A stretch of 64,000 bases of DNA from Escherichia coli O157:H7 (GTDB lineage: Bacteria; Pseudomonadota; Gammaproteobacteria; Enterobacterales; Enterobacteriaceae), in NCBI RefSeq assembly GCF_013167455.1, contig NZ_CP038328.1. One strand, written 5' to 3'. Shown here one piece after another: positions 47,301 to 53,300 of this stretch (within the stretch, counting starts at the first letter, position 1; each line of letters opens with the position of its first letter). The position numbers are program-made.

Positions 47301-50300
47301 TCGCCAGAAGGCAATCAGCTGGCTGAAAGAGCTGGGCAATCCTTACGCGCTAAGCCTTTTTGATGGCGATGGCATGTTAGGGCTGGATCTCGGTGTCTAT
47401 GGCGCGCCAGAAACGTTTCTTATTGACGGCAACGGCATCATTCGCTATCGCCATGCGGGCGATCTCAATCCTCGCGTCTGGGAAGAAGAGATCAAGCCGC
47501 TGTGGGAGAAATACAGTAAGGAGGCCGCACAATGAGGTTTTTATTGGGCGTGCTGATGCTGATGATCTCCGGCTCAGCGCTGGCGACCATCGACGTGTTG
47601 CAGTTTAAAGATGAAGCACAGGAACAACAGTTCCGTCAGCTCACTGAAGAACTGCGCTGCCCGAAATGCCAGAATAACAGCATTGCCGATTCCAACTCGA
47701 TGATTGCCACCGACCTGCGCCAGAAAGTGTATGAACTGATGCAGGAAGGCAAAAGTAAGAAAGAGATTGTCGATTATATGGTGGCGCGTTACGGCAACTT
47801 CGTCACTTACGATCCGCCGTTAACGCCGCTGACCGTGCTGCTGTGGGTGCTTCCGGTAGTGGCTATTGGTATTGGCGGTTGGGTCATATACGCCCGTTCG
47901 CGGCGTCGGGTACGCGTGGTACCGGAAGCGTTTCCTGAACAAAGCGTGCCGGAAGGTAAGCGTGCCGGATATGTTGTTTATCTGCCGGGTATTGTGGTGG
48001 CGTTAATTGTGGCTGGCGTCAGCTACTACCAGACTGGCAATTATCAGCAGGTGAAAATCTGGCAGCAGGCCACGGCACAGGCTCCGGCGTTGCTGGACAG
48101 GGCGCTGGATCCGAAAGCCGATCCGCTCAACGAAGAAGAGATGTCGCGCCTTGCGCTGGGGATGCGTACTCAACTGCAAAAAAATCCGGGAGATATAGAA
48201 GGTTGGATTATGTTGGGTCGCGTTGGCATGGCGCTGGGTAACGCCAGTATCGCCACCGATGCATACGCTACTGCGTATCGCCTCGATCCGAAAAACAGCG
48301 ATGCCACACTGGGTTATGCTGAAGCGTTGACACGTTCATCTGATCCCAACGACAACCGCCTCGGCGGCGAACTGCTGCGCCAGTTGGTGAGAACGGACCA
48401 TAGCAATATTCGTGTGTTAAGCATGTATGCGTTTAATGCCTTTGAGCAGCAGCGATTTGGCGAAGCCGTTGCCGCGTGGGAGATGATGTTGAAACTCTTA
48501 CCTGCCAACGATACTCGCCGTGCGGTGATTGAACGTAGTATCGCGCAGGCGATGCAACATTTGTCGCCGCAGGAGAGTAAATAAAAAGAGGCCCGATGGT
48601 GATGCCATCGGGCTATTTTTATTGTGCCCCGCGTTGTTGCAGGAACAGAATGGTGGCTGCCACGCGTGAGCGGACATTGAGTTTGCGCAGTAGATTGCGA
48701 ATATGTACTTTTACTGTCTGCTCGGAAATATTCAACACCGAGGCAATCTGTTTATTTGACAGCCCCTGTGCCAGCTCGTGCAGAACATCCAGCTCGCGCT
48801 CCGTCAGCACGCTGAAGGGATCTTCTTCCGCGCCAAACATTTCACGTTCATGTAAGTACTGATTGACGCGTTCGCTAAAGACTTTGCTGCCTTTCGCTCC
48901 GGCACGAATCGCTTCCAGCAACACTTCCGGGTCGCTGTCTTTCAACAGATAACCGTCTGCGCCTGCGTCTATCAGTGCAAAGACATCGCTGGAGGCATCT
49001 GATACGGTCAGGATAATAATTTGCGCGGTAACGCCATCCCTGCGCAAGGCATTGAGGGTATCCAGGCCACTCATACCTTTCATATTGAGATCCAGCAAGA
49101 TCACGTCGATATCCAGTCTATTCGCCAGATCGATAGCACTCGCGCCGTCGCCCGCTTCGGCGACCACTTCAAAGCCAGGATCAAGCTCCAGTAACTGACG
49201 AACACCGCGTCGCATAAGTGGATGATCATCCACAATCATCACCTGAAAAGGCGTTGCTTCAGGCATAGTAGTCTCCTGAGGTTTTATTAGAATCATTATG
49301 TTTGAGCGTAGCGTTGGTAACGCTACCAGGCGCGTGAATGTTACCCCATTTTATGTATGGACATGTAGCGAAAACTACAACCTTGTCGTTCGCTTTGGCA
49401 TCATTTTCATTATAAAGACGGAATTTTGCATCAGCTTCTCATCAAGAAAAACAACTAAAAAATCAATCACAATACTTGTGCATTTCTTTAAACAGTTTTT
49501 AAAAACTGACTCCGGGTATGGAGCTATGGGTATTTTCTGTACCCAATGCTTTTAACTGCAATTAATTTCATAGGATGAAAGCTCAATGCATCAATCTGGT
49601 TCTGTTTCTCTTTGTCGTTCCGCAATATCTGTTCTGGTAGCTACAGCGTTATATTCACCCATAGCATTGGCATCAACAGTTGAGTATGGTGAGACAGTTG
49701 ATGGTGTTGTCCTGGAAAAAGATATCCAGCTGGTTTATGGGACCGCCAATAATACGAAAATCAATCCTGGCGGAGAACAGCATATTAAAGAATTTGGTAT
49801 AAGTAGTAATACTGAAATTAACGGCGGGTATCAGTACATTGAAATGAATGGCACCGCAGAATACTCAGTATTAAATGATGGTTATCAAATTGTTCAAATG
49901 GGTGGCGCGGCAAACCAGACTACGCTCAATAATGGTGTGCTACAGGTTTATGGCGCAGCGAATGATCCCACGATTAAAGGCGGGCGCTTAATCGTTGAAA
50001 AAGATGGGATTACCGTCCTTGCCGCTATCGAAAAGGGAGGATTACTGGAGGTTAAAGAGGGGGGATTAGCGATTGCGGTAGATCAGAAAGCAGGCGGTGC
50101 TATTAAAGCAAGCACGCGGGTCATGGAGGTATTCGGAACAAACCGTCTCGGTCAGTTCGAAATCAAGAATGGTATTGCTAACAATATGCTGTTGGAAAAC
50201 GGCGGAAGTTTGCGAGTTGAAGAAAATGACTTCGCTTATAATACTACTGTAGATAGTGGCGGCTTACTGGAGGTTATGGATGGCGGGACTGCAACTGGCG

Positions 50301-53300
50301 TTGATAAAAAAGCAGGCGGAAAATTAATTGTCTCAACGAATGCGCTGGAAGTGAGTGGTACAAACAGTAAAGGCCAATTTAGTATAAAAGATGGTGTGTC
50401 AAAAAATTATGAACTGGATGATGGTTCCGGGCTTATTGTTATGGAGGACACGCAGGCCATTGACACTATCCTCGATGAGCATGCCACTATGCAATCGCTG
50501 GGAAAGGATACTGGTACGAGAGTGCAGGCAAATGCGGTATATGATCTCGGTCGATCAGATCAGAATGGAAGTATAACGTATTCCTCTAAAGCCATCTCTG
50601 AAAATATGGTTATCAACAATGGCCGCGCTAACGTCTGGGCTGGCACAATGGTTAACGTGTCAGTCAGAGGAAATGATGGCATTCTTGAGGTTATGAAGCC
50701 GCAAATAAATTATGCACCCGCAATGTTGGTGGGTAAGGTAGTGGTTTCTGAGGGCGCTTCTTTAAGAACGCATGGTGCCGTGGATACCAGCAAAGCGGAT
50801 GTTTCGCTCGAAAATAGCGCATGGACCATCATTGCCGATATCACTACGACGAACCAAAACACCCGCCTTAACTTAGCCAACCTTGCGATGTCTGGCGCAA
50901 ATGTGATTATGATGGATGAGTCAGTGACTCGTTCATCTGTGACGGCAAGTGCGGAAAATTTCACTACGTTGACCACCAATACCCTGTCGGGAAACGGCAA
51001 TTTTTATATGCGTACCGATATGGCGAATCATCAGAGCGATCAGCTCAACGTCACCGGTCAGGCAACAGGTGATTTCAAAATATTCGTGACGGACACCGGT
51101 GCCAGCCCGGCAGCAGGAGATAGCCTTACACTGGTAACAACGGGCGGCGGTGATGCTGCATTTACGTTGGGCAATGCCGGAGGCGTTGTTGATATCGGTA
51201 CGTATGAATATACCTTGCTGGATAATGGTAACCATAGCTGGAGTCTGGCAGAGAATCGCGCGCAAATTACCCCTTCAACCACTGATGTGCTGAATATGGC
51301 GGCCGCACAACCGCTGGTATTTGATGCAGAACTGGACACCGTGCGTGAGCGTCTTGGTAGCGTAAAAGGCGTTAGTTACGATACGGCGATGTGGAGTTCG
51401 GCAATTAACACCCGCAACAACGTGACCACTGATGCGGGAGCTGGTTTTGAGCAAACATTGACGGGCCTGACGCTCGGTATCGATAGCCGTTTCTCCCGTG
51501 AAGAAAGCAGCACAATTCGCGGCTTGTTCTTTGGTTACTCTCATTCTGATATTGGTTTTGATCGCGGCGGCAAAGGCAATGTCGATAGCTATACCCTGGG
51601 GGCTTATGCCGGTTGGGAGCATCAGAACGGTGCCTATGTTGATGGAGTGGTGAAAGTTGACCGTTTTGCCAACACCATCCATGGCAAGATGAGTAATGGG
51701 GCAACAGCGTTTGGCGATTACAATAGTAACGGCGCGGGTGCTCATGTCGAGAGCGGGTTCCGTTGGGTTGACGGATTGTGGAGTGTTAGACCCTATCTGG
51801 CCTTTACCGGCTTTACCACAGATGGTCAGGACTACACGTTATCAAACGGCATGCGCGCGGATGTGGGAAATACCCGGATATTACGCGCTGAAGCGGGAAC
51901 GGCGGTAAGCTATCACATGGACCTGCAAAACGGTACGACGCTGGAACCCTGGCTGAAAGCCGCCGTGCGTCAGGAATACGCCGATTCTAACCAGGTGAAA
52001 GTTAATGACGATGGCAAATTTAATAATGATGTGGCTGGAACCCGTGGCGTTTATCAGGCTGGGATAAGGTCATCGTTTACCCCGACGTTAAGCGGTCATT
52101 TGTCAGTCAGCTATGGCAATGGCGCAGGGGTAGAATCGCCGTGGAATACCCAGGCGGGTGTGGTCTGGACGTTCTGATAACAGACAATAAACAGGCCCTG
52201 ATGTGTCGCGGTCTGTTTATCGAATTAAATGCAGATATAAAAAAACCAACCTTTACGGTTGGTTTTTTTGGGATTTTTGGTCGGCACGAGAGTAGTTTAA
52301 TTGAGTATGTAACTACATGATTTTAAATAATATGCTTGATTCAACTTTTAAACCGTATAACTAAACGTATAACTAAAATCATTTGCTGAAAAAGTGTACA
52401 ATTTAAATGCGAGTTTTCCTGTGGTAAAAGCTCCAACCGTAACGATGTTCGTTATGGTTGCCTTGATGGTCTGCGTGGTCATTATGACCATTCAGGATTT
52501 GAAGGGTGACGCTTCCGACTTCCTCAAATTGAGGTTTCCGAAAATATCAGCGGGTTAGGCCAGAGTGCAAATTTGCACTCTGGAACAATTCCAACCAGTA
52601 ATCAGCGCAATTTTGCGCTTTGCTTTAAGTTCAGCGAGTAACCGAAGGCGGAATTACGCCCTCGGTACTCACATATGAGAAACGATATTTCTTCCACCGA
52701 TACCCTTTATTTGGGTATCGCGAGTAAGCCCCAAAATCTGGGTGTTACTCTTACTACCCAAACTACGGGTATTTTCCGTAATTTCATGGTCGAGTTGCAG
52801 ATCTGCAACTCACCCACCAGCCAACGCAATTTTGCGCTTTGCTTTAAGTTCAACCAGTTACCGCCGTAACCGCTCCGGCTTCTTCCAGTGGTACGTAATT
52901 TTTGCTTTTTCCCTGTACGTCTGCACGCGGCGACGGTAGGCCAGCATTTCAAGAACGCGGATCCGTATGTTGCGCATATCAACGCCATTAAGTTCTATAC
53001 CATCACGGCGCATCACCTCAGCAACCACACGCGCGTAATTTTCGGCGGTCACGCTGTACGGCTGCGCGGTTTTTTCGTCAGCCTGCTGGCTGATTCCGGC
53101 GACGCGGCGGATTAATCCCAGTATTTCGGCTTCTGTCATTTCTCCACCTGGTCAGCTATTAAACTGCGAAAATTTCGTAATTATCCCGATACGGGGATCA
53201 CCATATCGGGATTGATGCCGGAAAAATCAGCTTTCGCCAGAACGGTGACGGCCTTATCGAGTTTTTGCCATCCGCAATAGGTGATTGCCCTGAACGCTGT

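Follow-up and report, generated by a model that had tools for sequence, protein, structure and literature searches.

A close described counterpart of the gene considered here is yejO of Escherichia coli K-12 (b2190, 'adhesin-like autotransporter YejO'), which is classed as a pseudogene. RefSeq annotates the MG1655 locus as a 69-nt N-terminal pseudogene piece, an IS5 transposase and an 'autotransporter YejO, incomplete, missing N-terminus'. This lesion has also been published (PMC11005336), and yejO counts among the 11 loci at which strain BW25113 carries IS5, the insertion sequence there being oriented like the gene (PMC11677980). We analysed yejO in a stretch of 64,000 nucleotides from E. coli O157:H7 (assembly GCF_013167455.1, contig NZ_CP038328.1), hereafter referred to as the window. 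The window very probably carries an intact chromosomal ortholog of yejO that encodes a type Va autotransporter, for which homology points to a surface adhesin mechanism. Earlier records already cover the gene with its name and architecture, the IS5 disruption in K-12 and the truncation in uropathogens.

An earlier note, made from the sequence alone, had described an uninterrupted open reading frame (ORF) of 863 codons with a signal peptide and a C-terminal barrel, and all three observations hold. The mechanical ORF list returns exactly that frame, from its ATG onwards and with no internal stop, a length far beyond chance, and RefSeq annotates a matching coding sequence (CDS) of 2592 bp as yejO in related genomes. 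The encoded protein is identical over 863/863 residues to WP_000554210.1 of O157:H7 strain PV15-279, and is kept unchanged across the O157:H7 lineage. Under the name 'autotransporter YejO', the exact sequence is deposited in the public protein collection, where it maps to at least 1000 contigs; the 90%-identity cluster to which it belongs counts 16,859 members. A 3.1-kb query found 5424 of the 5426 complete E. coli genomes (RefSeq) that form our survey set, always on the chromosome and at features named 'yejO: autotransporter YejO'. Both marks of the YejO ortholog group, a near-identical sequence and a position between narP and tRNA-Pro/yejM, are present. Antisense or overlapping ORFs within yejO (up to 156 aa, minus strand) and an 85-aa ORF at 49298-49555 were considered and rejected as genes, being unannotated in the RefSeq genomes examined.

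The architecture of the protein is that of type Va secretion, with a Sec signal peptide, a C-terminal barrel closed by an aromatic residue, and passenger and barrel joined in one polypeptide. The predicted signal peptide opens with a short and polar n-region carrying Arg11 (MHQSGSVSLCR), continues with the h-region SAISVLVATALY, which has a mean Kyte-Doolittle hydropathy of +1.86, and ends in the c-region SPIALA followed by S, whose A-x-A motif (ALA-S) predicts cleavage after residue 29, before Ser30. The passenger contains AIDA repeats matched by PF16168 in two stretches (171.5 bits, above the curated Pfam cut-off) as well as repeats of the TIGR04415 type (62.5 bits against a cut-off of 30), which are targets of O-heptosylation. 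Repeats of this type are heptosylated by enzymes like Aah and TibC. Directly ahead of the barrel region lies a pertactin-like domain (PF03212, 153.6 bits against a cut-off of 22) that, by analogy, would correspond to the autochaperone region. The barrel is recognized by PF03797 (155.6 bits against a cut-off of 26) and, over residues 456-863, by the NCBIfam model TIGR01414, autotrans_barl (373 bits against a cut-off of 16), and the protein terminates in VVWTF.

K-12 yejO occupies the same locus, at 97.4-99.1% DNA identity, and differs in one decisive respect. BLAST of the window against the MG1655 locus returned two pieces overlapping by four bases, and these bases coincide with the empty IS5 target site of the window. 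At the MG1655 junctions, a 1195-bp IS5 with inverted ends (GGAAGGTGCGAA...) is flanked on both sides by a duplicated TTAT. It is inserted after nt 67 of yejO, between codons 22 and 23 within the signal peptide, and hence cuts off the start codon, together with the larger part of the signal peptide, from the remaining gene, whereas the site in the window is empty. When IS5 and one TTAT are removed in silico, an 863-codon ORF is back, whose product aligns gap-free with YejO of the window at 835/863 (97%) identical residues, 22 of the 28 differences falling in the repeat passenger. IS5 is therefore the sole lesion of the K-12 gene. The earlier note had named the IS5 disruption of K-12 yejO and stated that an intact and identical K-12 copy would make the ORF of the window unremarkable; the K-12 copy proved to be neither intact nor identical. 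The TTAT duplication at this IS5 (positions 2854-4048 of the MG1655 locus, L001) is unlike the CTAA and CTAG sites given for other IS5 copies (PMC11677980).

The survey set places the K-12 allele among several others. With a 140-nt probe that has the IS5 site at its centre, 5019/5426 genomes gave an uninterrupted match and about 361 records a match split into two places; the records listed are K-12 laboratory strains. A second lesion converts the TGG codon of Trp789, in the barrel, to TGA: an exact match of a 63-nt TGA probe was found in 1159/5426 genomes (about 21%), and all four genomes checked (L007, L008, L014 and L015) have 'internal stop' in their annotation of this allele. Among eight evenly sampled full-length loci, two were flagged 'internal stop', both by this same substitution, and six were intact, the intact alleles being 96-98% identical in diverse backgrounds. 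The stop context TGA-C is comparatively leaky; in those other genomes, low-level read-through of W789* restoring Trp is conceivable. A third class, a deletion remnant covering 39-47% of the 3.1-kb query and devoid of the barrel, accounts for about 1100 genomes (about 20%). The one remnant examined, from the urine isolate E07 (L003), is a 927-bp pseudogene with an internal stop that misses the C-terminus and barrel. These barrel-less remnants agree with two published statements, namely that yejO is truncated in uropathogenic E. coli (UPEC), as the 2010 work is quoted in PMC3426408, and that it is 'missing from ST131', in the wording used in PMC5654935. Rarer variants include an IS2 insertion in yejO of strain H6 and, in strain AR24.2b (L004), a 789-aa allele that is annotated intact and matches the query as two pieces with a coverage of 91%, which is consistent with an internal, in-frame deletion.

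A 778-bp barrel segment is present to at least 80% in 4291/5426 genomes, and subtraction of the nonsense and IS5 classes leaves about 2770 genomes (about 51%) as an upper bound for intact yejO. None of the three common lesions is present in yejO of the window, which is the standard allele of O157:H7. No other single state is as common in E. coli as the intact one, and the K-12 state is a derived exception; finding yejO intact is thus correct but ordinary. Since K-12 is exceptional at this locus, studies of YejO function need either an allele from outside K-12 or a K-12 derivative cured of IS5. As three separate lesions are common and at most about half of the complete genomes are intact, yejO also illustrates conveniently how a surface protein is lost repeatedly.

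The narP-yejO intergenic region has a GC content of 0.40-0.45, against about 0.52-0.57 in the flanks, and the segment 49200-49652 that contains it is 99.1% identical to K-12 by BLAST. A Shine-Dalgarno-like AGGA (49572-49575) precedes the ATG by 10 nt. Downstream, a strong intrinsic terminator falls in the stretch common to genomes free of the 9.57-kb island that follows yejO in the window (the query match ends at 52292), so the transcription unit of yejO is complete. Comparison of the window with restored K-12 yejO gave a dN/dS ratio (nonsynonymous to synonymous substitution rates) of 0.29 for the whole gene; by region, the values were 0.35 for the repeat passenger, 0.31 for the pertactin-like region and 0.13 for linker plus barrel. 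This pattern may reflect a constrained translocator and a more variable exposed part, for which 60 substitutions are weak evidence.

From its sequence we infer secretion, a beta-helix architecture and an adhesive role for YejO. The 29-residue signal peptide would direct Sec export, and the C-terminal domain of about 280 residues would enter the outer membrane as a beta-barrel with the assistance of the beta-barrel assembly machinery (BAM). The passenger of about 530 residues would be threaded outward, and its folding would begin at the pertactin-like C-terminal end and yield a beta-helix of AIDA-type repeats, a fold predicted through homology to the structures of Ag43, TibA and pertactin. The passenger would then stay surface-bound and serve in adhesion or aggregation, in the manner of AIDA-I, Ag43 and TibA. 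Autotransporter passengers are functionally diverse, as is established for type V secretion, and the literature found assigns no function to YejO by experiment; both points would accommodate a passenger with some other activity (protease, esterase or toxin), or one released to the medium after cleavage. We consider this very improbable, as Pfam recognizes only AIDA repeats and pertactin in the passenger, with no S6 peptidase (serine protease autotransporters of Enterobacteriaceae, SPATE), GDSL lipase or subtilase domain in YejO at E <= 0.01, and as matches to IgA1 protease and Hap are limited to the pertactin-like region (residues 403-571). The closest solved relatives of the repeat region in the PDB are the self-associating Ag43 passengers (7koh, E=1e-36) and TibA (4q1q) together with an AIDA-I-family adhesin (7ko9). 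Assignment of YejO to the SPATE or other enzymatic autotransporters was rejected for want of a catalytic passenger domain at the same Pfam threshold.

Several observations nonetheless weigh against a working surface adhesin. YejO is not an ortholog of the characterized adhesins, scoring 143.6 bits against a cut-off of 1200 with the Ag43/Cah model (NF033177) and 69.9 bits against 1200 with that of AIDA-I (NF033176), and values this far under the cut-offs mean that their adhesin or binding specificity is not transferable to YejO. A simple scan of 49200-52450 found no sigma-70 consensus site upstream of yejO on the plus strand; its only two matches, compared with a shuffle mean of 6.2, are both antisense within yejO. 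No experimental characterization of YejO function was found in the searchable literature, in which yejO appears only in statements on pseudogenes and on distribution, and as a K-12 deletion used as a wild-type-like control. About half of the complete E. coli genomes have independently inactivated yejO, which is therefore dispensable, and the intact ORF may be unused. Finally, an RNA-seq compendium covering 3376 datasets (PMC10392735) places K-12 yejO close to the bottom of its expression table, at rank about 4501 and with a count-column entry of 106. This rank says little on the intact allele because IS5 stands between promoter and gene body in K-12.

Taken together with the AT-rich promoter region, the near-silence of the K-12 locus suggests that yejO is cryptic and switched on in particular conditions only. 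By analogy with the cryptic adhesin genes of E. coli, silencing by H-NS is plausible for an autotransporter locus that is AT-rich and poorly expressed; our literature search found no yejO-specific H-NS data. The same observations can be read otherwise, namely that the ORF is a relic not yet broken, never usefully expressed in this lineage, drifting neutrally and heading for pseudogenization. At least three independent inactivations at high frequency and the sporadic IS2 insertion of H6 speak for such a relic, as do the almost silent K-12 locus and the failure of the scan to find a consensus promoter. Yet dN/dS is well under 1, notably in the barrel (a pairwise value resting on only 60 differences, and hence weak), the protein is invariant in O157:H7, and highly similar intact alleles persist in diverse backgrounds. 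We regard the relic as possible, if on balance unlikely. The earlier note had concluded that this strain appears to retain a functional copy. The intact ORF, full domain set, native terminator and purifying selection agree with a functional copy, and YejO would probably act as a surface adhesin; 'retains' is misleading, since it is K-12 that departs from the usual state.

A more far-reaching proposal is that the intact allele, in its O157:H7-like background, is a conditionally expressed surface adhesin or aggregation factor, possibly heptosylated in trans, and that losses elsewhere reflect niche-specific selection and not neutral decay. We put this forward only tentatively and consider it rather unlikely. 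No glycosyltransferase or heptosyltransferase gene adjoins yejO, which is bordered by narP upstream and by the terminator and the left attachment repeat (attL) downstream. If YejO were a working adhesin, the losses through IS5, W789* and deletion would reflect selection against its display, for instance as an immune or phage target.

Table 1. Features of the yejO locus and the adjoining island, in window coordinates.
Feature	Position	Strand	Remarks
ccmH	47532-48584	+	upstream neighbour
narP	48619-49296	-	divergent from yejO
narP-yejO intergenic region	49297-49585		AT-rich; both promoters presumably inside
yejO CDS, intact	49586-52177	+	mechanical ORF list; 863 codons plus stop, ATG start, 2592 bp
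Sec signal peptide, residues 1-29	49586-49672	+	predicted by reading the sequence and hydropathy
TTAT, empty IS5 target site	49649-49652	+	window equivalent of the K-12 insertion
Passenger, N-terminal part, AIDA-type beta-helix repeats (predicted)	49673-50875	+	PF16168, TIGR04415
Pertactin-like domain, C-terminal end of passenger, residues 431-555	50876-51250	+	PF03212
Autotransporter beta-barrel translocator, residues 602-841	51389-52108	+	PF03797; barrel runs on to F863
Codon W789	51950-51952	+	TGG in window; TGA (stop) in nonsense allele
Intrinsic terminator	52238-52280	+	14-bp stem, 5-nt loop, T-run; 61 nt past yejO stop codon
Left attachment repeat (attL), TTTGGTCGGCACGAGAG	52276-52292		copy of tRNA-Pro 3' end; end of native yejO locus
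Capsid-family protein	53181-54158	-	island
Small terminase subunit	54312-54938	-	island
D5-type primase-helicase	55945-57777	-	island
Tyrosine integrase	60392-61651	-	island
tRNA-Pro(GGG) (proL)	61852-61928	-	downstream, past island
yejM	62003-63763		downstream of tRNA-Pro

The gene order ccmH-narP-yejO-(tRNA-Pro)-yejM (Table 1) is the same in K-12, O157:H7 and the other E. coli examined, and is interrupted in the window between yejO and tRNA-Pro by the 9.57-kb island (52276-61866), which is inserted at the 3' end of tRNA-Pro(GGG) and leaves yejO and its terminator untouched. A 17-nt direct repeat, TTTGGTCGGCACGAGAG, delimits the island, its second copy lying at 61850-61866, and alignments of most genomes with the window stop at 52292, within the 3' end of tRNA-Pro. 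Just within both island ends, a perfect 26-nt direct repeat, CCGTATAACTAAACGTATAACTAAAA, itself an internal tandem, occurs at 52353-52378 and 61696-61721; these copies may serve the integrase as arm-type binding sites. Besides the genes listed in Table 1, the island encodes an AlpA-like excisionase/regulator, an Ash-family protein and a DUF4222 protein, a gene set that suggests a phage satellite similar to the phage-inducible chromosomal islands (PICI) and inserted at proL. Rfam, applied to 47000-63000 with gathering thresholds, found nothing in or immediately around yejO and reported only C4, isrK and tRNA, in or beside the island. The C4 antisense RNA (58621-58708, minus strand, 77.6 bits) and isrK (58730-58806, minus strand, 66 bits) sit side by side within the island and overlap mechanical ORFs of the Ash-family gene region. 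Some genomes of Shiga toxin-producing E. coli (STEC) carry related islands at this site. Only 1/5426 complete genomes covers at least 80% of the island (90% coverage, 95.1% identity), which makes it a mosaic variant of a common family, and the whole 20-kb context (44000-64000) has no full match in this set, the best reaching 95% coverage and 96.7% identity, so that the strain behind the window does not belong to these 5426 genomes. O157:H7 PV15-279 has the same YejO and the same upstream genes, but there tRNA-Pro directly follows yejO.

Beyond its own orthologs, YejO resembles two sets of described autotransporters. With pertactin, BrkA and Vag8 of Bordetella it shares the pertactin-like domain at the C-terminus of the passenger and a homologous translocator barrel: pertactin (1dab) aligns to residues 382-558 (E=2.5e-18), the BrkA translocator (3qq2) to residues 582-863 (E=7.6e-19) and Vag8 over residues 460-860. 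The N-terminal passenger regions of these proteins are unrelated to that of YejO, and both organism and biological roles differ. With Ag43, AIDA-I and TibA it has in common the type Va architecture, AIDA-type repeats that include the O-heptosylation target type, and detectable passenger homology. Its passenger is shorter, however, and no heptosyltransferase gene is adjacent; self-association is known for those adhesins, which YejO resembles at the level of the repeats only.

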